Positions 50-13,585 of a stretch of 13,585 nucleotides of DNA are shown piece by piece. The notes beneath the pieces are model-generated. The model made no database searches, had not been told where the DNA came from, and was given only the letters and a program-made list of their open reading frames with translations. The stretch's first letter is position 1. The number at the start of each line of letters is the position of its first letter. Origin of the DNA: a virus; the UHGV virus genome UHGV-0122598. One strand, 5' to 3'. The position numbers and the translations under genes are program-made.

Positions 50-586
50 ATGCGTCGCGCTAACGATCCGCAACGGCGAGAAAAAATTATCCAGGCCACG
101 CTGGAGGCGGTGAAACTTTACGGAATACATGCTGTTACGCACCGCAAAATTGCTACCCTTGCCGGGGTACCGTTGGGATCGATGACCTACTATTTTTCAG
201 GAATTGATGAGTTGTTGCTGGAGGCGTTCAGCAGTTTTACTGAGATTATGTCCCGGCAATATCAGGCATTTTTTAGCGATGTTAGTGATGCTCAAGGCGC
301 ATGCCAGGCTATCACCGATATGATCTACAGCTCACAGGTTGCAACGCCGGATAACATGGAGCTGATGTACCAGCTCTACGCGCTGGCTAGCCGAAAACCG
401 CTATTAAAAACGGTAATGCAAAACTGGATGCAGCGCAGTCAGCAAACGCTCGAACAATGGTTTGAACCCGGAACCGCCCGCGCGCTTGATGCGTTTATTG
501 AGGGGATGACGCTGCATTTTGTCACCGACCGTAAGCCGCTATCGCGCGAGGAGATTTTGAGGATGGTTGAGAGGGTTGCAGGGTAG
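50..586 (+). CDS. rcdA: TetR-family transcriptional regulator, RcdA/YbjK-like (178 aa); the ORF-track start at 20 is an upstream extension
   Basis: ORF 20..586; in-frame ATG at 50 preceded by GAGGAA (37-42); TetR-type HTH segment [19 protein letters not shown]; sequence recognised from memory as E. coli RcdA (YbjK), not database-verified. Confidence 0.75.
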
Positions 587-610
587 TAGATAAATTTTAG
601 ATAACAAAAA

Positions 611-629
611 ACCCATTTATGTAAATGGG
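611..629. terminator. Perfect inverted repeat ACCCATTTA-TG-TAAATGGGT; rho-independent terminator, mainly for the leftward int/moron transcript, possibly bidirectional
   Basis: 9-bp perfect stem; A6 run on the + strand immediately upstream means a U-run follows the hairpin on the minus-strand transcript; lies between the convergent ends of the rcdA-like gene (586) and ORF 732..1217. Confidence 0.6.
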
Positions 630-731
630 TTAGAAATAACAATGAGTTGCAAGACAATCAATAAGTTAGGTTAGTGATAAGGAGTGGCGATTACGGGACA
701 ATGCCAACCGCTGCCGCCACTTTGTCGCCAC

Positions 732-1217
732 TTATACCGGAGATTTGTCATTTCCCCATAAAGGGAGGCTGGTGCTGAAGATTGCACGTTCGCAATCAGT
801 CTCAAGTTTCTTCTGAGCAACCTTTTGTGGGATAAATCGACACTGATTTGTGCGGCGGTCATACTTGATTTTAGCCTTTCCAATCTCAATAGCCCGCCAG
901 CCAATAGTACGATGTATTACAGCATCTATAGTCCTAAGACATCTCAGTTTACCCTGAATGAGGAACTTTTCTTCGGGATTAATTGTGCAGGTGAGTTCTC
1001 CTGAAAAAGTCCAATCACCTTCTGCTTTCTCTAACTGTATATGTATGAAATGTGGATAAGAAGTAGAGATGTCACCTTCATTGCCCCAATCAACTTTTAC
1101 CAAAGACTCATAGTTTTTTGTTTTAGATGATTGATAAATAGGTTGATATGCAGCAGGGATGATTACAACTGCCCCAACTGCAGCCACAACTGAAAAAAAA
1201 TCCGCAATGCCGGACAT
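732..1217 (-). CDS. Hypothetical membrane-anchored protein (161 aa), AT-rich moron downstream of int
   Basis: ORF 732..1217; N-terminal hydrophobic segment FFSVVAAVGAVVIIPAAY (one predicted TM helix) then a polar domain; about 42% GC by eye versus about 50% in flanking genes; co-directional with int, 40 bp downstream of its stop. Confidence 0.55.
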   Translation of the reverse strand: MSGIADFFSVVAAVGAVVIIPAAYQPIYQSSKTKNYESLVKVDWGNEGDISTSYPHFIHIQLEKAEGDWTFSGELTCTINPEEKFLIQGKLRCLRTIDAVIHRTIGWRAIEIGKAKIKYDRRTNQCRFIPQKVAQKKLETDCERAIFSTSLPLWGNDKSPV

Positions 1218-1257
1218 AGCTTTACTCTATTAAGGGAAGGTGCGCTATTTTAACGTG

Positions 1258-2301
1258 TTAGCTGTTTGCTTCAAGGCTCGTTGCTTTAGTGGAAAGTGTG
1301 GCTAATGGATTGAAACGCAGTGCTGTTTCAAGGTGATCAGGGGCAAGATGTGCATAGCGCATAGTCATTTTTATATCGTGGTGGCCCAGGATTTTTTGCA
1401 AAGCAAGAATGTTCCCGCCGGACATCATAAAATGTGCTGCGAACGTATGGCGTAGAACGTGGGTAAGTTGCCCGCGTGGTAGTACGATCGAGGTTCTATC
1501 CATCACGGCTAAAAACTGGAAGTAGCAGTCAGTAAATAATTTGAAGCCGTCTAGGGCAACAATTTCCTCATACAGCTCTTTGCTGATCGGAATGCTGCGG
1601 TTTTTTTTGCCCTTAGTTCTGACAAATGTGATTCGGTATTTCGTGACCTGAGAACGTGTCAGGTTCACAGCTTCGCGCCAACGTGCTCCGGTGCTCAAGC
1701 AGATTTTGACGACAAGAGCGAGCAGGGGGCTTTGGCGTTGACAGTCGAACAGAAGCTCTGTGATTTGTTCATGTGTCAGCCAGGCCATTTCTTTTTCGGC
1801 AATGGTGAATTTACGCATGTTCTCCAGTGGATTTGGTGCTGTCCATTCACCGAGGCGGGCTAACTCGCTAAAGACCCCACTCAGATAGCTTTGCTCCAGA
1901 TTGATAGTTACCGGGCTGGCTCCTTTCTTCCATTTTTCGCTGAAGTAGATTTCACCCGTCAGGCGCTTATCGCGATAGTGCGCGAACATTTTGGATGTTA
2001 GATCGGTGGCGAGGGGATTTCCGAGAGCATCGACCATCAGTATCAACTTGTCGTAAACATGCTCGCCAGCGGTCAGGGATTTGCCGTGCAGTTTGAACCA
2101 GAGTTCAACGATATCCTGTAGAGTTCGACGGTCTACCGATTCACCAAGCCAAGGCTTAGCTTCTGCCTCCTCCATCGTGTGACGCTCAAAAGCTAATGCT
2201 TCGCCTTTGGTAGCGAACTGTTTACGCACGCGACGCCCGCTGCGTCCGGCGGGGTAACATTCGCAAAGCCATTTCCCTGTGGTTAGTTTTCGTACTGCCA
2301 T
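1258..2301 (-). CDS. int: Phage tyrosine integrase (347 aa from the MAVRKL start)
   Basis: Tyrosine-recombinase catalytic signature HVLRHTFA ... MRYAHL near the C-terminus; ATG at 2301 preceded by GGAGGG 6-7 nt upstream; the ORF-track extension to 2457 lacks an RBS and would add 52 residues not expected for P2/186-type integrases. Confidence 0.9.
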   Translation of the reverse strand: MAVRKLTTGKWLCECYPAGRSGRRVRKQFATKGEALAFERHTMEEAEAKPWLGESVDRRTLQDIVELWFKLHGKSLTAGEHVYDKLILMVDALGNPLATDLTSKMFAHYRDKRLTGEIYFSEKWKKGASPVTINLEQSYLSGVFSELARLGEWTAPNPLENMRKFTIAEKEMAWLTHEQITELLFDCQRQSPLLALVVKICLSTGARWREAVNLTRSQVTKYRITFVRTKGKKNRSIPISKELYEEIVALDGFKLFTDCYFQFLAVMDRTSIVLPRGQLTHVLRHTFAAHFMMSGGNILALQKILGHHDIKMTMRYAHLAPDHLETALRFNPLATLSTKATSLEANS

Positions 2302-2489
2302 AAAAAATGCCCTCCAGTAGAGAGCATTTTCACTGTATGTATAACCAGTGTCAATGTATGAAATCCTACGACCATACATCTCACTGAAGCCATAATTAAG
2401 TTGGCTATTCTTTTTGCTATGTGAGCATGTAATTTTTGCGGTTAACCTGCGGCTCATTTTTATTTTAGGCGCAGATATAAAAGCAAAAG

Positions 2490-2681
2490 TTATCGTGAGT
2501 TTTTAGTACAGATTTTTTTGGATTTACTAATAGTTCCATCATTGCAAACAAATTTGCCATCTGAGGTACAGTGAGAAACACCTCCCTTTTTCCCTGAACA
2601 GGGATAATTTCTAGCATAGGTAGTTAGTGGGTTTAATAACAAAGAACATGACAAAACCACAAAAAATACCTTACCAAGCAT
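2490..2681 (-). CDS. Small secreted Cys-rich protein (63 aa) with a predicted signal peptide; moron inside the cI-int lysogeny operon
   Basis: ATG at 2681 preceded by GGGAGGA 6 nt upstream, 16 nt after the cI stop; N-terminus [23 protein letters not shown] is signal-peptide-like; mature part has 4 Cys (C-x8-C ... C-x11-C); ORF-track start at 2708 has no RBS. Confidence 0.55.
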
Positions 2682-2697
2682 AGTTTTCCTCCCGGTA

Positions 2698-3267
2698 CTA
2701 TTTAACATACTTGACTGTTAAACTTATAATTTTACCAATTATTTCAATGTCTTCTATCTTGCATTCGAAGGCTCTGTTTCCACCCTCGACGAAGATTCTT
2801 CCACCGGGTAAACGAGTAATGTCACGGATCGTTATTTCGCCATCAATACTTATTACCCATTTACCATCACGTATATCATCAAATTCCTTATCACAAATAA
2901 ATTCAGAATTATTATCTGTGATTGCAAAAAGATTCTTGAATGCCGACGGTAGAAATTCCCTATCGAAAATATAAAAACCGTCTTCACACAAGGCCCCATC
3001 AGATAATACATATTTAGCAACTTCCATAGTATTTGTATTTGCTGATGCTTGCTTTGAACCATGCCCTGTTGTTAGCCAATTAAGCGAGGTGCCCGTTTCA
3101 AGGGCGCACTGGATTACCCAATCTGCTGGAAAAATATCACGCATATAGCGCGTTGCCATGGTGCTCTTAGAAACACCTAAATGATCACAGAGAGCCTGAC
3201 GGGTACCGAACCCATATGCTTCAACTAAACGTTCTATGGCTTTCTTACCGCCGCTATTGAAATCCAC
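2698..3267 (-). CDS. cI: CI-type prophage repressor, 186 CI-like (about 189 aa from the GTG at 3267; the ORF track extends to a GTG at 3354)
   Basis: N-terminal HTH ([25 protein letters not shown] ... [17 protein letters not shown]) and C-terminal segment [36 protein letters not shown] resembling the 186 CI family as I recall it; GTG at 3267 has GGAGGA just upstream and gives a 186-CI-like length; start choice is uncertain. Confidence 0.75.
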
Positions 3268-5481: not shown

Positions 5482-6335
5482 GCACCATCCTGAAATGGGC
5501 GGGAAATAAAACCGCCATTATGTCCGAACTGAAAAAACACCTTCCTGCTGGCCCGCGACTGGTTGAACCTTTCGCGGGTTCCTGTGCTGTGATGATGGAG
5601 ACGGATTACCCCAGCTATCTGGTTGCGGATATTAATCCTGATTTAATCAACCTCTATAAAAAGGTTGCCGCTGATTGTGAATCGTTTATATCTCGCGCCA
5701 GAGTTTTATTTGAGATCGCAAACAGGGAGGTGGCTTATTACAACATAAGGCAGGAGTTTAATTACTCCACTGAAATTACTGATTTCATGAAAGCGGTATA
5801 TTTCCTGTATCTCAATCGTCACGGTTACCGTGGTTTATGTCGCTATAACAAGAGCGGGCATTTCAACATTCCCTACGGTAATTATAAAAATCCGTATTTC
5901 CCTGAAAAAGAAATTCGCGCATTTGCAGAAAAAGCCCAGCGAGCAACGTTTATCTGCGCCAGCTTTGATGAAACGCTGGCGATGTTGAAGGCGGGGGATG
6001 TGGTGTATTGCGATCCGCCGTATGACGGTACGTTTTCCGGCTATCACACTGACGGCTTCACTGAAGATGACCAGTATCACCTGGCATCTGTTCTTGAACA
6101 TCGGTCATCAGAAGGACATCCGGTCATTGTTTCTAACAGTGACACATCCCTGATCCGTTCGCTGTATCGCAATTTTACTCACCACTACATCAAGGCAAAA
6201 CGCAGCATCGGTGTGGCAGCTGGCGAGGGTAAATCAGCAACAGAAATCATTGCTGTTTCCGGGCCGCGCTGCTGGGTGGGATTTGATTATTCGCGTGGCG
6301 TGGATAGTTCTGCCGTGTACGGAGTACGTGCATGA
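5478..6335 (+). CDS. dam: DNA adenine methyltransferase, Dam family (285 aa from the MSTILKW start)
   Basis: N-terminal KWAGNK...EPFAGS (SAM-binding) and catalytic DPPY ([10 protein letters not shown]); ATG at 5478 preceded by GGAGG; ATGA overlap with the upstream stop; track start at 5418 is an extension. Confidence 0.85.
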
Positions 6336-8746
6336 GTCATGCCGATATGAACAACTGCTGCGGCTTTAACGAAGCTGCCGCATCGTTCTCATGGAACAGC
6401 CCGAAAAAGGCCATTAACCCTTATCTGGACCCGGTGGAAGTTGCGCCGGTTTCTACGCTTTCAAACCTGATCACTCTGTACGCTGCCGATAACGAGCAGG
6501 AACAGCTGCGCCGTGAGGCGCTGAGTGATCAGGTCTGGGAGCGTTATTTCTTTAATGAATCCCGTGATCCTGTCCAGCGCGAAATGGAACAGGATAAGCT
6601 CATTAGTCGGGCAAAGCTGGCGCATGAGCAGCAGCGTTTTAATCCGGATATGGTCATTCTGGCGGACGTCAACGCCCAGCCTTCCCATATCAGCAAGCCG
6701 CTGATGCAACGTATTGAATACTTCAGCAGCCTGGGCAGGCCAAAGGCTTATTCCCGCTATTTACGTGAGACGATTAAGCCATGTCTGGAACGACTGGAGC
6801 ATGTACGCGACAGTCAGCTATCTGCATCTTTTCGCTTTATGGCAAGCCATGAAGGGCTGGACGGCCTGCTGATCCTGCCTGAAATGAGTCAGGATCAGGT
6901 GAAACGCCTGTCCACCCTGGTAGCTGCGCATATGAGTATGTGCCTTGATGCCGCTTGTGGCGATTTGTATGCCACCGATGACGTTAAGCCAGAAGAAATC
7001 CGCAATACATGGGAAAGGGTGGCAGCGGAAACCCTGCGTCTGGATGTAATCCCGCCTGCGTTTGAGCAACTCCGTCGGAAAAGAAACCGCCGTAAACCCG
7101 TGCCCTATGAACTCATTCCGGGTTCGCTGGCGCGTATGTTGTGCGCCGACTGGTGGTACCGGAAATTATGGAAAATGCGTTGCGAATGGCGGGAAGAGCA
7201 GTTGCGTGCTGTCTGCCTTGTCAGCAAAAAAGCATCTCCCTATGTCAGCTATGAAGCCGTGTTGCATAAACGTGAGCAGCGCCGTAAGTCGCTGGAGTTT
7301 TTCCGTTCTCATGAACTGGTGAACGAAGACGGCGACACGCTGGACATGGAGGATGTGGTAAACGCCAGCAGCAGCAACCCTGCGCATCGCCGCAATGAGA
7401 TGATGGCCTGTGTTAAAGGTCTGGAGCTTATCGCGGAAATGCGCGGTGACTGCGCCGTTTTCTACACCATCACCTGTCCGTCACGTTTCCATTCCACGCT
7501 AAATAACGGCAGGCCCAACCCGACCTGGACAAATGCGACGGTAAGACAAAGCAGCGATTATCTGGTCGGTATGTTTGCTGCATTTCGTAAGGCGATGCAC
7601 AAAGCCGGGTTGCGCTGGTATGGCGTGCGGGTGGCTGAGCCGCATCATGACGGTACAGTTCACTGGCACCTGTTGTGTTTCATGCGCAAAAAAGACCGCC
7701 GCGCCATTACTGCATTGTTGCGTAAGTTTGCTATCCGTGAAGACCGCGAGGAGCTGGGCAATAACACGGGGCCGCGCTTTAAGTCTGAGCTGATTAACCC
7801 GCGCAAAGGAACGCCGACAAGCTACATAGCGAAATACATCAGTAAGAACATTGACGGGCGTGGTCTGGCTGGCGAGATCAGCAAGGAAACGGGTAAATCT
7901 CTGCGTGATAACGCTGAATACGTGAACGCCTGGGCGTCTTTGCATCGTGTTCAGCAATTCCGCTTCTTTGGCATTCCGGGGCGTCAGGCTTACCGTGAAC
8001 TGCGATTGCTGGCTGGTCAGGCGGCAAGGCAACAGGGGGACAAAAAAGCAGGTGCGCCGGTACTGGATAACCCGCGCCTTGATGCCATCTTGGCTGCTGC
8101 TGATGCTGGTTGTTTTGCCACCTACATCATGAAGCAGGGCGGCGTACTGGTTCCCCGTAAATATCACCTCATCAGAACCGCTTATGAAATCAACGAAGAG
8201 CCGACCGCCTATGGCGATCACGGCATTCGTATTTATGGCATCTGGTCACCCATTGCAGAGGGCAAGATCTGCACTCATGCAGTGAAGTGGAAAATGGTTC
8301 GTAAAGCCGTTGACGTTCAGGAGGCGGCAGCCGACCAGGGCGCTTGCGCCCCTTGGACTCGTGGCAATAACTGTCCCCTTGCTGAAAATTTGAACCAACA
8401 AGGGAAAGACAAATCAGCTGATGGGGATACCAGAACGGACATTACCCACATGGATGACAAGGAGTTGCACGATTACCTGCACAGTATGAACAAAAAAGAG
8501 CGCCGGGAACTGGCTGCAAGGTTACGCCTGGTGAAACCGAAACGGCGTAGAGACTACAAACAGCGAATTACAGACCATCAACGACAGCAGCTCGTCTATG
8601 AACTGAAGTCCAGAGGATTTGATGGCAGCGAGAAAGAGGTCGATTTACTCCTTCGCGGCGGCAGTATTCCGTCAGGAGCAGGCCTGCGTGTCTTCTATCG
8701 GAACCAGCGTTTGCAGGAAGATGATAAGTGGCGGAACCTGTATTAA
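6332..8746 (+). CDS. A: Phage replication initiation protein, P2/186 gene A family (rolling-circle endonuclease, 804 aa)
   Basis: Large ORF starting with an ATGA overlap on the dam stop; GGAG 7 nt upstream; HUH-like motif VHWHLL and YIAKYISK segment typical of gpA-type replication endonucleases (family knowledge). Confidence 0.85.
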
Positions 8747-9450: not shown

Positions 9451-9666
9451 GTGCTGGAACGTTTAACCCTTGGCGACTGGGTCTTCTTTCAACGCCCAAA
9501 GGAGTGTGGCGGAGGTTTTTGGTTGGGCCGCATCTATGAAGACTGCTTCTGGCTTGAGCTGGAATTTCCCGTTTCGCTATATGACGGCCTGGGGTTTTTG
9601 ATGGAAGTCACTAGGGTAGAGCAGAGAAGTGATGAGGTTGACGCGAATTATCCCCTGTTTGATTAA
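9451..9666 (+). CDS. Doubtful hypothetical ORF (71 aa, GTG start, Trp-rich)
   Basis: ORF 9451..9666; GTG start, weak RBS, no recognisable motif; may be a remnant. Confidence 0.3.
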   Translation: MLERLTLGDWVFFQRPKECGGGFWLGRIYEDCFWLELEFPVSLYDGLGFLMEVTRVEQRSDEVDANYPLFD

Positions 9667-9714: not shown

Positions 9715-10326
9715 ATGGATTTAGTCTTTAAAGTTCTGGCTTCGTTGGGTGGGGTGTCTTTTGTTGCATCTGGCATATTTGTTTGGATCGGGAAAGTTTA
9801 TTTAGAAAGATATAAGTCGCGGCTAAACAAAGATATTGCTGAATTTCAATCACAACTGAGTGCAACTAATGAAAGAATAAAGGCTAAGTTAGACAATTCT
9901 GTTTATGTAACGAAAGCGTATTTTGATAAGGAGTTATCAGCATATAGTCTCATTTGGAATTCGATGTTTGAAACCAGAGAAAGCGTGCTTAAGCTGAGGC
10001 CTGCGCTGGATCATGTTGACCCCAACGAACCATTTGAAGAGAGAAAATTTAGAAGGTTGAAAGTTTTTTTTGATGCATTTAACACTTTTGTTACAAGTGT
10101 TGAATCTAACAAACCGTTCATCTCACCAGAGGTTTATATAATCTTGGACCGTTTCCGGAAGGAATGCCTTTCAGAGTCAATATCGTTTAAGCATAGCGAT
10201 CCAGAATTTGACGGGCAAAATTATTGGAAAGAGGCGGAGTTGAACCGTACAACCATCACCAAGCTTTTTGATGAGACGTGTGATGCAATTCGAGACAGGA
10301 TGCACACATTAACTGTGGTTACGTAG
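9715..10326 (+). CDS. Hypothetical single-pass membrane protein (203 aa): N-terminal TM helix plus a helical cytoplasmic domain
   Basis: ORF 9715..10326; GGTGGGGG upstream of the ATG; N-terminal LVFKVLASLGGVSFVASGIFVWIG is a predicted TM helix; about 40% GC by eye; own candidate promoter and downstream terminator. Confidence 0.6.
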   Translation: MDLVFKVLASLGGVSFVASGIFVWIGKVYLERYKSRLNKDIAEFQSQLSATNERIKAKLDNSVYVTKAYFDKELSAYSLIWNSMFETRESVLKLRPALDHVDPNEPFEERKFRRLKVFFDAFNTFVTSVESNKPFISPEVYIILDRFRKECLSESISFKHSDPEFDGQNYWKEAELNRTTITKLFDETCDAIRDRMHTLTVVT

Positions 10327-10416: not shown

Positions 10417-10441
10417 GGCCCGCCAGAACTGGTGGGCTTTT
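10417..10441 (+). terminator. Rho-independent terminator (GCCCGCC stem, 6-nt loop, GGTGGGC, then TTTT)
   Basis: 7-bp GC-rich stem with one G-U pair followed by TTTTG, about 90 bp downstream of the 203-aa gene stop. Confidence 0.6.
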
Positions 10442-10486
10442 GCGTAGATCATGCAGGTGCATGAAAACCACTACATAAAGCGGGCA

Positions 10487-10505
10487 GGCGTGGCGGGGAT
10501 ACGAG
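10487..10505. other. cos-like sequence (GGCGTGGCGGGGATACGAG) resembling the 19-nt cohesive ends of P2/186-family phages
   Basis: First 13 nt, GGCGTGGCGGGGA, match the 186/P2 cohesive-end sequence as I recall it (GGCG[T/A]GGCGGGGAAAGCA[T/C]); the position between the early-region end and the portal-like gene fits prophage synteny. Confidence 0.4.
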
Positions 10506-10592
10506 CGCGCGCTTAGCCATGAATCTGTGGACTTGATGGTGAAGCTAAGGTAATTTGTATCAAAAAAAAGCAGTACAATAGGGATATATAGA

Positions 10593-11672
10593 GTGGCGTT
10601 ATCAGATGCGTTAATTACAGTAAATCAAGCCGAACGGGGCGGTGAAAACGCGTTGAGAGGCTTTTCATATCAAGCCTCTTGGGGGATAAATTATTTACTT
10701 GAGAAACAAAAAGAAAAGGAGAAATATTTATTTCTATTTGAATATCATGACGATATTCTTGTATTGAATTCATCTGTTTCTCCGACTAGTGCTGAGTTTA
10801 TCCAAGTTAAAACAAAAAAAGATGGTAAATGGACACTCGCAGCAATAGTGAACGCAACAAAAGCTAAACCTAAATCATTTGTTGCAAAACTATATGACCA
10901 TTTCTATCAATTCGTTGGTCACGAAATTTATATGGTTCTGTTATCGAATGCTGGATTCGATTTCTTAAATGATAATAACGAAAAAGGTAGTGATCTTAAT
11001 AATGAGCATAAGGAAATTATAATTAGTAAGGTTCAAGAGCAGCTAAATACTAAAAAAGAAGTTCCTCTTGATAAAATAAAATTTAAAACATCTGATCTTA
11101 GTTTGTTAGATCCTAACTCACATTTATACGGGAAAGTTGCAGTTTTTTTGAATTCTTACTTTGGGGATGATCATGGTATTAATTCAACAGCATTCACTAA
11201 ATTATTAATCAATAAGTGTAATGAGAAGGTTAGTGTTGCTTCTAGTGATATCAAAACTTTTGAAGATTTAGTACTAAAGAAAGGTATATCTTCAGAATTT
11301 GTAACTGATTTATTATCTGGACTCATTGCAAGCATAAAAATAACGCCAAAATGGGAACAGGTTTGTATGTTGCTTGGTACTTTCTCAGATCCTTATGAGG
11401 GGATTAAATTACAATCAGTTTTTACACGCATATCAATAAAAGTGCTCAATGTCAATTCAATATACTATCTTTATTTTCTGGAATTTCAATCGGCTCTAAA
11501 GAGTATAGAGCATTATCGTGAGATACCTGTTCGAGACCTCTTCTTTACACTCGAAAAAACAATTGCAGCGGGGGACGGGGATTTCTCTTTATTAAATCAA
11601 GAAGAGAAATTTATGATTGCTATATATGCAATTATAAAGTTGACTTTTGAGGATGTTTCTTATGAAGAATAA
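10593..11672 (+). CDS. Candidate PD-(D/E)xK-type nuclease effector (359 aa), Cap4/LmuA-like N-terminal domain plus an uncharacterised C-terminal domain
   Basis: ORF 10593..11672 (GTG start, AGGGA upstream); N-terminal LFLFEYHDDILVL ... EFIQVKTKK fits a hhD ... (E/Q)xK restriction-endonuclease-like core; about 30% GC by eye; last 11 nt overlap the start of the downstream ATPase gene. Confidence 0.6.
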   Translation: MALSDALITVNQAERGGENALRGFSYQASWGINYLLEKQKEKEKYLFLFEYHDDILVLNSSVSPTSAEFIQVKTKKDGKWTLAAIVNATKAKPKSFVAKLYDHFYQFVGHEIYMVLLSNAGFDFLNDNNEKGSDLNNEHKEIIISKVQEQLNTKKEVPLDKIKFKTSDLSLLDPNSHLYGKVAVFLNSYFGDDHGINSTAFTKLLINKCNEKVSVASSDIKTFEDLVLKKGISSEFVTDLLSGLIASIKITPKWEQVCMLLGTFSDPYEGIKLQSVFTRISIKVLNVNSIYYLYFLEFQSALKSIEHYREIPVRDLFFTLEKTIAAGDGDFSLLNQEEKFMIAIYAIIKLTFEDVSYEE

Positions 11673-13320
11673 CGTTAAATTTAAAAATATAAAAATACTC
11701 TCATTAAGAGACAGAAAAGCTTTTTCTTATGAGTTTTCAGAAGGGGTTAACTTCATATATGGTACAAATGATGTTGGTAAATCAAGCCTGATTAAAAGTC
11801 TTTATTACACATTAGGTGGAGATTTAAGGCTTGATGATGCTTGGAAATCAGATGATATAGTTACACTGGTGGAAATTAATAACGGGGAAAATGATTTTAT
11901 TTTTTTGCGTTATAAAAAGATTATTGGTGTCTTTGATTTGAAGAATGATGATCTAGTCGTGTATAACACGATTTCGTCATTAGCATCTCGTGTTTCAAAT
12001 ATATTTGGTTTTAAACTGGAATTACATAATAAATATACGGGTGCTACGACTCAGGCAAACCCTGCTTGTTTGTTTGCCCCATTCTTTATTGATCAGGATG
12101 AAGGATGGAAAGCGGTGATAAATTCTTTCGAAAACATGAGTATGTACTCAGAATGGCAAAAAAACATTCTTTACTATCACTCTGGAATTAAGCCAAAGGA
12201 ATATTATACAGTTCAAGGGAAAATCAAAGAAATTAAAGTTAAAATTTCAGAGTTAGATGGTTTTGTTAAGGTTCTAAAAAGAAGCAAAAGTAAGATTGAT
12301 GAATCTTTTGGCGTGGTTTTATTTGATGTTGATTTGGATTTTTATAAATCAAAGTTGGAACGTATATTAAATGAATATTCTAATTTAAATTTAGTTCAGA
12401 CAGAATATAGATTAAATCTTTTGAGGTTATATTCTAGGAAGAATTTCCTTGAGAGTGAACTCAAAGAGATAACTGCGATTATTGATAATGAATTTGAGAT
12501 TTCGAATTTTCGAGATGATAATGTTGCTTATTCAGTAAATGAATATAATTATATAAACCATAGAGATGAAATGCTCAAAAACATTGCTGTTCTTGCAGAT
12601 GAGAAAAGCAAGATTGAGGAAAATATTCCTAAATTGAATCAAAAGCTAGAAGAGTCAAGGGCTGCTTCAGAGGCGTTGCAGGCGCTGATTTTAGAAACTC
12701 AATCGGAAATAACGCTTCATGATGTTATTAAATCTGCCGCATACCATGAAATTGAATCTACTTTTATTTCACAGTTAGATGAGTTATTCGTTGAGATTGG
12801 TCGAAAAGAAGGCGAGTTGACAGAATTACAAGAAGAATTAGAAGTATACAATGATAAGAAAAGAACTGTTAAAATAAATGACTGTTTCAAAGAGTATTTC
12901 GCTAAAGCTCTTAAAGAGCTTGGTGTCGAAAATACAAAGGTAGGTGGCCTTAGTAGTTATAATAATATTACTAAGGGTAAGACTGGTAGTCGAGGTCCTC
13001 GAGGTATATTTGCATTTCACTACGCGCTGCTTAGTGTTATGAAAAGCAACTCTTCAGTTGAGAATATGCCTATAGTAATAGACTCTCCAAAGCAACAAGA
13101 TTTGGATCCAGAGCATACGCATAAGCTTATAAAACTATGCTTGGATGGGTTTTCCCTTACAAATCAGATTATTATTGGAACTGTTGGTTATGAGAGTTTC
13201 ATGGATGGTTTTAATAGCATCAAACTTGAAAATAAATATCATCTTTTAAATGATGAACATTATGATAATGTTTATTCTCAATTAATGCCATTGTTTGAAC
13301 GGGTGATACTTTCAAGATGA
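11662..13320 (+). CDS. SMC/ABC-type coiled-coil ATPase (552 aa from the MKNNVKF start), LmuB-like
   Basis: ATG at 11662 with GAGGA 9 nt upstream; Walker A GTNDVGKSS at residues 34-42; long E/K/L-rich coiled-coil middle; Walker-B-like MPIVIDSP, D-loop-like DLD and His near the C-terminus; the track start at 11647 is a 5-codon extension. Confidence 0.75.
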   Translation: MKNNVKFKNIKILSLRDRKAFSYEFSEGVNFIYGTNDVGKSSLIKSLYYTLGGDLRLDDAWKSDDIVTLVEINNGENDFIFLRYKKIIGVFDLKNDDLVVYNTISSLASRVSNIFGFKLELHNKYTGATTQANPACLFAPFFIDQDEGWKAVINSFENMSMYSEWQKNILYYHSGIKPKEYYTVQGKIKEIKVKISELDGFVKVLKRSKSKIDESFGVVLFDVDLDFYKSKLERILNEYSNLNLVQTEYRLNLLRLYSRKNFLESELKEITAIIDNEFEISNFRDDNVAYSVNEYNYINHRDEMLKNIAVLADEKSKIEENIPKLNQKLEESRAASEALQALILETQSEITLHDVIKSAAYHEIESTFISQLDELFVEIGRKEGELTELQEELEVYNDKKRTVKINDCFKEYFAKALKELGVENTKVGGLSSYNNITKGKTGSRGPRGIFAFHYALLSVMKSNSSVENMPIVIDSPKQQDLDPEHTHKLIKLCLDGFSLTNQIIIGTVGYESFMDGFNSIKLENKYHLLNDEHYDNVYSQLMPLFERVILSR

Positions 13321-13326
13321 AAATAT

Positions 13327-13344
13327 GGCCTCAGAAATGAGGCC
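13327..13344. terminator. Hairpin GGCCTCA-GAAA-TGAGGCC between convergent genes; likely bidirectional terminator
   Basis: Perfect 7-bp stem with a GNRA-type loop 7 nt after the ATPase stop; an ATATTTTC run follows it on the minus-strand transcript. Confidence 0.5.
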
Positions 13345-13360
13345 GACTAAATTATCTTAA

Positions 13361-13585
13361 TTAAATTTTTAGTTCGTAGGTTGAAAAATTTATAATTCTA
13401 TCGTTTAACCAATTATTTATTTCTAGAAACATTTTTTGTAGAGGCAGTAGCTCATTTCGTACAAATACTGTGCTTGCCTTTTCGATATCCCCAAACCCCC
13501 CGACATTATTAGGCATTATCCCCATCATTTGTGGCGGCACACGATGCGCCGCCATCATGTCATCCCGGCTCACGTTCTTGATATT
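13361..13585 (-). CDS. 3' end of a phage portal-like gene (P2 gpQ-like C-terminus); partial, the reading frame stays open to the window edge
   Basis: C-terminal sequence AAHRVPPQMMGIMPNNVGGFGDIEKASTVFVRNELLPLQ resembles the P2-family portal C-terminus as I recall it; orientation and position just beyond the cos-like site fit P2/186 prophage synteny; the GTG at 13573 is not the true start. Confidence 0.55.
   Translation of the reverse strand, partial: NIKNVSRDDMMAAHRVPPQMMGIMPNNVGGFGDIEKASTVFVRNELLPLQKMFLEINNWLNDRIINFSTYELKI

Follow-up and report, generated by a model that had tools for sequence, protein, structure and literature searches.

Lamassu systems work by abortive infection, and members of the family have earlier been noted in prophage hotspots (bioRxiv 10.1101/2022.05.11.491447). 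The type I system BcLmuAB is an LmuB2:LmuA1 complex which is activated by dsDNA ends and regulated by ATP, the released LmuA then forming a tetramer (bioRxiv 10.1101/2025.06.23.660979). V. cholerae LmuACB follows the same activation scheme; in short Lamassu, the Walker B motif of LmuB reads hhhhD[Q/S/T/E], and the protein bears 0, 1 or 2 hooks (PMC12663957). The gpA-gpQ hotspot of P2-like prophages has been described (PMC9122126, PMC13586616), and the accessible part of the table of P2 hotspot arrangements by Rousset et al. contains 'DUF4297 + hypothetical' arrangements, one of them from strain L73.

The window, by which we mean the whole stretch of 13,585 nucleotides analysed here (UHGV virus genome UHGV-0122598), holds a two-gene cassette at 10513-13360. 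It very probably makes up a complete Lamassu of type I ('short', LmuC-less) with a Cap4-nuclease effector, carried as accessory cargo in the gpA-gpQ hotspot. Lamassu of this kind are already catalogued, and the cassette is not a new sort of system. No experimental report on it was found in the searched literature; judging by its homologues, it likely confers phage resistance by abortive infection.

Genes and proteins of the cassette

The cassette is 2.85 kb long and consists of two co-oriented genes (Table 1) that overlap by 11 nt (11662-11672). For the second gene, the mechanical list of open reading frames gives a TTG start at 11647 (557 aa); the ATG is preferred because of a GAGGA 8 nt upstream, the RefSeq annotation, and the homologues. 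An AGGGA ribosome-binding site lies 8 nt before the GTG start of lmuA. A promoter scan gave sites no more numerous than in shuffled sequence and no convincing sigma-70 promoter, indeed no site at all, in the 80-nt leader, and neither the leader nor the 40-nt tail of the cassette contains a plus-strand ORF of at least 50 aa. The lmuA product is identical in length to RefSeq WP_021565864.1. RefSeq labels it 'dsDNA nuclease domain-containing protein', while lmuB is labelled 'hypothetical protein' or 'AAA family ATPase'.

Table 1. Positions of the cassette genes and of the features that flank them in the window
Feature	Position	Strand	Remark
GC-rich hairpin plus TTTT	stem about 10417-10440, tail to 10444	+	context, outside the cassette
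cos-like core GGCGTGGCGGGGATACGAG	10487-10505	+	left edge of the variable slot
AT-rich leader, 80 nt	10513-10592	+	precedes the lmuA GTG
lmuA	10593-11672	+	GTG start, 359 aa
lmuB	11662-13320	+	ATG start 11662, stop 13320, 552 aa
GGCCTCA-loop-TGAGGCC hairpin	13327-13344		between the convergent lmuB and portal genes (terminator scan)
Portal gene (gpQ, P2-type), 3' end	13361-13585	-	right edge of the variable slot

LmuA matches the PADLOC LmuA model PDLC00243 with 475 bits (4e-143; residues 1-356 on profile positions 1-360 of 361) and the Pfam family Cap4_nuclease (PF14130/DUF4297) with 117.3 bits, the cut-off being 26.2 bits (residues 15-212 on positions 1-199 of 200). The protein comprises an N-terminal Cap4/DUF4297 PD-(D/E)xK dsDNA nuclease domain at about 15-212 and a helical C-terminal domain at about 223-354, the latter appearing as a helical bundle in the AF2 model (pLDDT 86). 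Within the core motif FEYHDD...FIQVK, residues H52, D53, D54, Q71, V72, and K73 are invariant in 14 homologues, the most distant at 21% identity, and E50 shows at least 90% conservation. We infer, without a residue-by-residue alignment, that K73 corresponds to the K57 mutated in Bc and Vc LmuA. The best PDB fold match of the model turned out to be 9ux7_C, the LmuA of the type I LmuAB-DNA complex solved by cryo-EM (352 columns, TMt 0.59), followed in order by HamA 8zue_A, V. cholerae LmuA 9nxx, Cap4 structures, and Salmonella LmuACB 9hqx_A. The Lamassu LmuA structures were reached by fold comparison and not by sequence: LmuA as a single sequence gave no match at E ≤ 0.01 among PDB sequences, and a 14-sequence profile gave Hachiman HamA 8zue_A (8e-4) as its sole match. 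By analogy with homologues, the helical C-terminal domain is predicted to serve LmuB binding and tetramerisation.

LmuB, a short SMC/Rad50-like ABC ATPase with a split head and an antiparallel coiled coil, matches the PADLOC LmuB model PDLC00255 with 841 bits (8.3e-254; residues 3-550 on profile positions 2-549 of 550). As a single sequence it finds Rad50 P-loops alone in the PDB; it took a 25-sequence profile to arrive at 9ux7_A, 'Lamassu protein LmuB', which is then matched over the full length (1.1e-44). In the helix map of the AF2 model (pLDDT 83), a coiled-coil arm extends over about 179-419 with breaks at 217-224, 280-287 (the apex), and 346-351. The fold matches of this model are headed by 9ux7_A (1.5e-24), followed by type II LmuB structures and then by Smc and Rad50. 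In the structural alignments, no more than 15-20% of residues are identical to those of the solved type I proteins, and the TM-scores are about 0.5-0.6, held down by flexible domains and arms. In NCBIfam, no model scored above its cut-off for LmuA or LmuB.

The Walker A motif of LmuB is GTNDVGKSS (G34-x4-GKS41), in which G39, K40, and S41 are invariant in the homologues. The deviant Walker B is PIVIDSP, with D474, S475, and P476 invariant in 25 homologues, and a signature-like GSRGPR is seen at 442-447. No conserved H-loop histidine is found in the LmuB alignment, the invariant residue at that position being Q502. A CxxC zinc hook is absent from LmuB, the cysteines of which lie at 136, 408, and 493 only. 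CPxCG occurs in LmuB homologues of at most 30% identity, and the window LmuB and its relatives of at least 36% identity have no hook; the CxxC zinc hook varies across short LmuB and is not strictly defining for type I Lamassu.

An earlier note on this DNA had read the pair as a Cap4/LmuA-type nuclease and an SMC/ABC-type LmuB of a type I Lamassu, and the two full-length PADLOC matches bear this reading out. Its caution about a divergent or unclassified relative is overruled; the pair is a squarely classified member. The hhD...QxK core that the note saw in LmuA is supported by the invariant D53, D54, Q71, and K73, and the Walker A, coiled coil, and Walker B of LmuB by the invariant GKS and D474 and by the modelled arm. 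The profile check against Cap4-nuclease (DUF4297) and the structure prediction of each protein, both proposed there, came out in its favour, the LmuAB-DNA complex 9ux7 being the best PDB match for both proteins. The suggested H-loop-like element needs correcting, its histidine not being conserved. A Ser is indeed present in place of Glu in Walker B, but it is no oddity, as Asp-Ser fits the published short-Lamassu motif (PMC12663957).

The system is assigned to type I because no lmuC is present, and the 11-nt overlap, the 80-nt leader, and the 40-nt tail leave no space for one in the cassette. It is placed in the 'short' clade because LmuB has 552 aa. A Cap4-then-LmuB pair without lmuC is also found at two other loci (L003 and L005), around homologous LmuB genes with 43% (V. 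cholerae) and 28% (mine-drainage MAG) identity to the window LmuB.

The cos-proximal slot and its cargo

The cassette occupies the cos-proximal gpA-gpQ slot, with replication gene A on one side and portal gene Q on the other, and adjoins cos. The gpA-like gene at 6332-8746 matches phrog_91 (6.6e-290), and the partial portal product matches Pfam Phage_portal (E = 2.1e-5), an annotation it shares with homologous prophages in RefSeq. The window also contains DinI, integrase, CI, and CII genes, which indicates a P2-like prophage context, and the prophage is integrated next to rcdA of E. coli.

To the left of the cassette, the 12-nt cos-like core GGCGTGGCGGGG at 10487-10498 is the single match to GGCGWGGCGGGG, with 0 expected by chance, and we take it to resemble the P2/186 cohesive end. 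The 186-type 19-nt cohesive end gave no match with up to 3 mismatches allowed; the 12-nt core alone matches. Salmonella phage SEN8 has a linear record whose end falls exactly at window position 10486, and homology with other P2-like prophages breaks off at 10511-10513. Judged by its sequence, the cos-like core is a probable packaging and cohesive-end site of the P2-like prophage.

The earlier description of the locus, two plus-strand ORFs of 359 and 552 aa with an 11-nt overlap in AT-rich DNA flanked by a cos-like site and the portal gene, agrees with the gene calls, with the composition (32.1% GC over the cassette as compared to 47.9% in the prophage backbone and 54% in the cos flank), and with the cos core and portal annotation. 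Its bracketing by terminator hairpins stands in part: both hairpins exist, but the upstream one lies outside the cassette and the downstream one is likeliest to be the terminator of the portal operon. The upstream hairpin (-21.5 kcal/mol, z = -3.97, with no shuffle folding as well) is situated left of cos in a backbone common to more than 1000 E. coli prophage records, and it is likely the terminator of prophage early or accessory genes. The downstream hairpin folds with z = -4.7 on the plus strand and -3.8 on the minus strand; its T-run belongs to the minus strand, and it reads best as a portal-operon terminator, possibly a bidirectional one.

A near-identical cassette is present in 11 complete E. 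coli genomes (98.8-100%), strain L73 (NZ_CP033378) being a carrier, and in 12 Klebsiella prophage records (99.6%). The cos flank itself is common to 1281 E. coli records, 11 of which have the cassette. In strain 89-3156, a prophage with the same backbone and the same integration site has different genes in the slot: SIR2 and an ATPase left of cos, a hypothetical and a HIRAN protein right of cos. One cassette carrier is a decayed prophage with no intact portal gene. The cassette is thus exchangeable accessory cargo of the P2-like prophage, as follows from its GC content (32% vs. 48% in the backbone), from the 11/1281 carriage, and from the other genes in the 89-3156 slot.

Proposed mechanism and alternative explanations

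The mechanism proposed here is taken from experimentally studied homologues, not from this cassette. A pair of LmuB would dimerise via the kinked coiled coils, and one LmuA monomer would be held near the coiled-coil apex by its helical C-terminal domain, which would keep the nuclease inactive. During replication of a competing phage (or plasmid), the LmuB head would bind dsDNA ends or replication intermediates, and slow ATP hydrolysis at the deviant Asp-Ser Walker B would lead to the release of LmuA. Free LmuA would tetramerise via the C-terminal domain, joining two Cap4 domains into an active sequence-independent dsDNA nuclease that degrades the DNA of the infected cell. The infection would be aborted, and the lysogen population and its prophage protected. 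The LmuB dimer interface must differ from that of the sole solved type I complex, because the window LmuB does not have the Zn hook used by BcLmuB.

A DNA-end sensor carried by a phage with cohesive ends presents a self-targeting puzzle. It is a doubtful proposition that a hook-less type I Lamassu beside the cos of a linear-entry cohesive-end phage is tuned to spare its carrier. The sparing may come from the way P2 replicates, circle to circle, and packages its DNA from monomeric circles, so that few free dsDNA ends are exposed, or it may come from an end or structure specificity unlike that of the Bacillus and Vibrio systems, seeing that dimerisation would do without a Zn hook here. If the carrier is spared, the cassette would lend itself naturally to testing how DNA-end-sensing immunity tells 'my phage' from 'other phage'.

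The same Lamassu machine might have plasmids, P4-like satellites, or other P2-like competitors as its main target, and not lytic phages. Type II Lamassu DdmABC targets both phages and plasmids and eliminates plasmids in V. cholerae (PMC12663957), and the cassette adjoins cos, the sole region that P2 has in common with P4 satellites (PMC9122126). However, the sequence does not discriminate between targets and type I Lamassu is defined by its anti-phage activity; we regard this version as unlikely.

Could the cassette be an incomplete type II Lamassu, with LmuC supplied from elsewhere? LmuC is present in most short Lamassu, where its deletion abolishes defence, and an uncharacterised 203-aa gene located just across cos would be the nearest source. 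This gene occurs in 52 genomes, but the other cassette carriers that were checked all lack it, and gene and cassette were not found together in any complete genome. Moreover, the lmuA/lmuB overlap leaves no gene between the two, the LmuB homologues at 43% and 28% identity retain the two-gene layout, and in structure the proteins come closest to the LmuAB complex, which has no LmuC. Published work already describes one clade (clade S, type I) that has lost LmuC, and an LmuC supplied from elsewhere seems very improbable.

A decaying, non-functional remnant, to which the negative promoter scan of the leader and the degraded state of one carrier prophage might point, is even harder to defend. Stop codons come up often in AT-rich DNA, yet both ORFs are intact; every catalytic and nucleotide-binding residue is conserved, and identity is 98.8-100% across 11 E. 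coli genomes and 99.6% in Klebsiella prophages.

It is exceedingly improbable that another ATPase-plus-nuclease system (Gabija, PARIS, Septu, OLD-like) or a Hachiman or CBASS fragment merely resembles Lamassu. PADLOC does give weak matches to GajA (4e-5; residues 8-64, the best stretch, and 302-369), HamA (4.7e-11; residues 11-97 only), and PbeC, and HamA and Cap4 structures are among the LmuA fold matches. The LmuA and LmuB models nevertheless score 475 and 841 bits at full length vs. 20-40 bits on short segments for the other systems, a difference by which these are in practice refuted, and no TOPRIM, helicase, or SAVED domain or cyclase gene occurs in or near the cassette. Gabija, PARIS, and OLD were rejected on the lack of a TOPRIM domain and the short, weak GajA matches; Hachiman, on a HamA likeness confined to LmuA residues 11-97 and no helicase gene in the window; and a CBASS Cap4 effector, on the helical bundle that forms the C-terminal domain, with no SAVED domain and no cyclase gene.

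A phage housekeeping module, that is, SbcCD/Rad50-like recombination or DNA-end processing for cos packaging, has a negligible chance of being the answer: although the cassette adjoins cos and LmuB descends from SbcC/Rad50-type proteins (PMC12663957), about 99% of E. coli prophages with this cos flank do without it (present in 11/1281 records), unrelated genes take its place in an otherwise near-identical prophage, its GC is foreign to the backbone, and it persists in a decayed prophage without an intact portal gene.

Read as a Lamassu system, the two genes can take the labels LmuA and LmuB, of a short, Cap4-type Lamassu of type I. The locus adds one more documented P2-like prophage with a complete abortive-infection system in the cos-proximal hotspot, and near-identical Lamassu cassettes are common to E. 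coli and Klebsiella prophages. Of mild interest are the dimerisation of a Zn-hook-less type I LmuB and the presence of a DNA-end sensor alongside the lytic cycle of the carrier phage.

Comparison with described systems

The Bacillus cellulasensis NIO-1130 system reportedly comes from Doron et al. 2018. Like this type I LmuAB (9ux7/9ux8; bioRxiv 10.1101/2025.06.23.660979), the window cassette has lmuA followed by lmuB and no lmuC, an LmuA made of a Cap4 nuclease domain and a helical C-terminal domain, and a short SMC-like LmuB that has a deviant Walker B and measures about 550-560 aa. Bacillus LmuAB is the best structural match for both window proteins, and for LmuB it is matched by the profile over the full length. 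The two systems differ in that BcLmuB has a CxxC (CQYC) Zn hook for dimerisation, in Walker B (FCMDS in Bacillus, VIDSP in the window), and in the Gram-negative host and P2-like prophage carrier of the window system.

V. cholerae DdmABC and Salmonella enterica LmuACB (9nxx, 9nyg, 9uxh, 9hqu, 9hqx; PMC12663957) likewise possess a Cap4-type LmuA and a hook-less short LmuB, the Walker A lysine being K40 in both the type II and the window protein. In type II Lamassu, monomeric LmuA is sequestered, DNA ends are sensed, and LmuA tetramerisation brings about activation, a scheme that is proposed here too. Type II systems, however, need LmuC, which also touches DNA, whereas the window cassette has no lmuC. 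Their LmuB is longer (about 630-650 aa), and the C-terminal domain of LmuA belongs to a different class in the ABC-3C nomenclature (CTD7 vs. CTD12).

The DUF4297/Cap4 PD-(D/E)xK fold and activation by oligomerisation are shared with CBASS Cap4 (6vm5, 6wan) and Hachiman HamA (8zue). For CBASS Cap4 the switch is a SAVED domain to which a cyclic oligonucleotide binds, and for HamA control lies with the HamB helicase; the window cassette has neither SAVED nor HamB.

With regard to the carrier, a close parallel is found in P2 old/tin and other cos-proximal cargo of P2-like prophages (PMC9122126, PMC13586616). The proteins are unrelated, and the window cassette is on the portal side of cos whereas old/tin is on the gpA side, but both occupy the same gpA-gpQ slot with AT-rich defence genes that are exchangeable between similar prophages.

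Prophage layout and the cos-proximal cassette

The window covers the left arm of a prophage, P2-like (Peduovirus-type) and integrated beside E. coli rcdA. The cassette region corresponds to the cos-proximal gpA-gpQ region, a hotspot for anti-phage cargo in P2-like phages (Rousset et al., PMC9122126; PMC13586616).

Features of the window in gene order
Feature	Coordinates	Strand	Remark
TetR-family gene	window end before the integrase		rcdA in homologous genomes
161-aa ORF	732-1217	-	41% GC; between chromosomal rcdA and the integrase
Integrase	1258-2457	-	
CI repressor gene			after the integrase
CII-like regulator, then Dam-type methylase			between CI and the gpA-type gene
gpA-type replication endonuclease	6332-8746		phrog_91, 6.6e-290
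DinI homologue			after the gpA-type gene, followed by the two small unknown genes
71-aa gene	9451-9666	+	phrog_2100
203-aa gene	9715-10326	+	phrog_26391 at full length (1.7e-142), family of unknown function
cos-like core	10487-10498		GGCGTGGCGGGG; a GC-rich conserved stretch precedes lmuA
Gene 1 (lmuA)	10593-11672	+	GTG start, 359 aa
Gene 2 (lmuB)	11662-13320	+	ATG start, 552 aa
Portal gene, 3' end		opposite to lmuAB	after lmuB

The open reading frames of the two cassette genes and their 11-nt overlap were confirmed as described in the earlier note. The same frames are annotated in the RefSeq record of E. coli strain H2 as CDSs of 1080 and 1659 nt. In alignments the first residues of the homologues coincide with both starts, and a purine-rich ribosome-binding site is located 8 nt before each of them. 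The cassette is indeed AT-rich, having 32.1% GC vs. 47.9% in the prophage backbone. It was delimited as 10513-13360, since similarity to sister prophages breaks off at 10511-10513. Salmonella phage SEN8 has a linear genome record whose terminus falls exactly on window position 10486, and the cassette begins a few bases past this presumed cohesive end. Both flanking hairpins are present and stable (z = -4.0 upstream; -4.7 and -3.8 downstream). However, the upstream one lies left of cos within the conserved backbone, and the downstream one has its T-run on the portal strand; therefore, the description of the genes as bracketed by terminators holds for the layout and not as a property of the cassette itself.

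The 71-aa and 203-aa genes (GC 41%) occupy the interval between DinI and cos, which is the old/tin position in P2. The 203-aa protein starts with a hydrophobic helix that leads into coiled-coil-like sequence; searches of Pfam, PADLOC, and NCBIfam gave no match for it. The pair is present in 52 of the 5426 complete E. coli genomes searched, none of which was found to combine it with the Lamassu cassette; the pair therefore counts as a cargo module in its own right, and as a candidate for a single-gene defence or exclusion function. The 203-aa protein was also considered as a hidden partner of the cassette and rejected, as the other cassette carriers checked lack it and it occurs alone in those 52 genomes. 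Beside the integrase, the 161-aa ORF gave no match in PHROGs and NCBIfam searches. It is a hypothetical protein in strain 89-3156 and is missing from the otherwise similar 23CRST028 prophage. PMC13586616 mentions a minor integrase-att hotspot, of which this ORF may be cargo.

The nuclease and the ATPase

Residues 1-356 of the gene 1 product match the PADLOC LmuA model PDLC00243 (E = 4e-143), and eight more LmuA models are matched as well. The score on Pfam Cap4_nuclease (formerly DUF4297) is 117 bits (cut-off 26). Across 14 aligned homologues with identity down to 21%, no substitutions occur at H52, D53, D54, or Q71-V72-K73 and hardly any at E50; these residues constitute the PD-(D/E)xK-type core. 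Both profile libraries and the invariant core agree with the PD-(D/E)xK nuclease of the Cap4/LmuA type proposed in the earlier note. The AlphaFold2 model (pLDDT 86) pairs an alpha/beta domain at the N-terminus with a helical bundle at about 223-354. In the PDB its closest fold is that of 9ux7 chain C, LmuA in the type I LmuAB-DNA cryo-EM complex, followed by Hachiman HamA, V. cholerae LmuA, CBASS Cap4 effectors, and Salmonella LmuA.

The gene 2 product matches PADLOC LmuB PDLC00255 over residues 3-550 (E = 8.3e-254), along with many other LmuB models. A profile of 25 sequences searched against the PDB retrieved 9ux7_A, 'Lamassu protein LmuB', at full length (1.1e-44), with Rad50 heads ranking only after it. 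In the predicted model (pLDDT 83) the ABC head is split, and the helical arm (179-419) breaks at the apex (280-287) and at a symmetric pair of positions (217-224 and 346-351). The fold search likewise placed 9ux7_A first (1.5e-24), then type II LmuB structures, and then Smc, Rad50, SbcC, and JetC. The third-best structural match was B. subtilis YydD in an integrative model of the YydD-YydB complex (9a6c_A); since it outranks most type II LmuB chains, YydD may be an LmuB-like protein.

No variation at D474-S475-P476 is seen across the 25 aligned homologues. The serine after the Walker B aspartate, which had been flagged as odd, turned out to fit the published short-Lamassu motif hhhhD[Q/S/T/E] (PMC12663957). 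The Bacillus and V. cholerae proteins, BcLmuB and VcLmuB, also have a 'naturally deviant' Walker B and show moderate ATP hydrolysis (bioRxiv 10.1101/2025.06.23.660979). The signature-like G442-S443...P446-R447 is invariant too. The H-loop-like element suggested previously was not borne out: the region has no conserved histidine in the LmuB alignment, its invariant residue being Q502.

Distribution and exchange of the cargo

Of the 5426 complete E. coli genomes, 11 carry the cassette (98.8-100% identity), as do 12 Klebsiella prophage records (99.6% identity). Genomic context, inspected in three genomes (partly in one), places it between the cos flank and the portal gene. The flank of about 180 bp alone is common to 1281 E. 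coli records. The prophage of strain 89-3156 has the same backbone and chromosomal site and carries other cargo (locus L002, 9976-15122): a SIR2-family protein and an ATP-binding protein (ATPase) on the gpA side, left of cos, and a 304-aa hypothetical protein and a HIRAN-domain protein on the portal side. Cargo thus differs on both sides, which shows that the portal-side slot is a site of exchange in its own right.

Millman et al. (bioRxiv 10.1101/2022.05.11.491447) already remarked on Lamassu-family members in P2 prophage hotspots. The supplementary table of Rousset et al. on P2 hotspot arrangements contains 'DUF4297 + hypothetical' entries, including strain L73 (NZ_CP033378), one of the 11 cassette genomes. 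In strain H2 (locus L001, 15000-15823) a 100%-identical cassette resides within a decayed prophage, where the portal and tape-measure genes are both truncated and fused next to each other; here the defence cargo has outlived the phage structural genes. The other end of this prophage harbors a reverse-transcriptase-domain gene next to ssrA.

Proposed action and relation to known Lamassu systems

By analogy with characterized systems, an LmuB dimer would hold a single, monomeric LmuA by the C-terminal domain, close to the apex of the coiled coil, and so keep Cap4 inactive. An LmuB head would bind an invader's dsDNA ends or its replication intermediates, and ATP hydrolysis would release LmuA. Free LmuA could then tetramerise via the C-terminal domain, giving an active Cap4 dimer and non-specific DNA degradation, and the infected cell would die or arrest. 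All sequence and structural elements needed by this model are present and conserved in the cassette. It raises the questions of how a DNA-end sensor coexists with a cos-ended carrier phage and how a type I LmuB dimerises without a hook.

The only notable functional alternative, an unlikely one, is that plasmids or satellites, not lytic phages, are the main target, and the system would still be Lamassu. The remaining proposals, i.e., another ATPase-nuclease system (Gabija, PARIS, OLD) or a Hachiman/CBASS fragment, an incomplete type II Lamassu, a phage housekeeping SbcCD-like module, and a dead remnant, are weakly supported or contradicted.

The type I Lamassu interpretation is supported, with PADLOC models recognising both proteins end to end; systems of this kind are already known, and standard defence-annotation models recognise the cassette. 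It has no room for an lmuC gene, and clade S, the former type I, is defined by LmuC loss (Haudiquet et al.). At 552 aa, LmuB is a 'short' Lamassu member. The same pairing of genes, with LmuB directly after a Cap4_nuclease protein of about 360-370 aa, recurs with a V. cholerae LmuB homologue (43% identity) and one from a mine-drainage genome (28%).

The symmetric breaks in the modelled LmuB arm recall the mid-arm kink of BcLmuB and VcLmuB (bioRxiv 10.1101/2025.06.23.660979). In contrast, dimerisation of the solved type I BcLmuB uses the coiled coil together with a Zn hook, whose CQYC is visible in the profile alignment, whereas the window protein has no CxxC anywhere. In the alignment of LmuB homologues, CPxCG at the apex occurs only in relatives with ≤30% identity, whose apex is about 12 residues longer (alignment columns ~300-330; window residues ~280-290). 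The motif is absent from the window LmuB and all relatives with ≥36% identity, which points to a single loss of the zinc hook within this type I lineage. Since short LmuB proteins with zero, one, or two hooks have been documented (PMC12663957), the hookless form falls within the range of the family and does not make a new kind of system.
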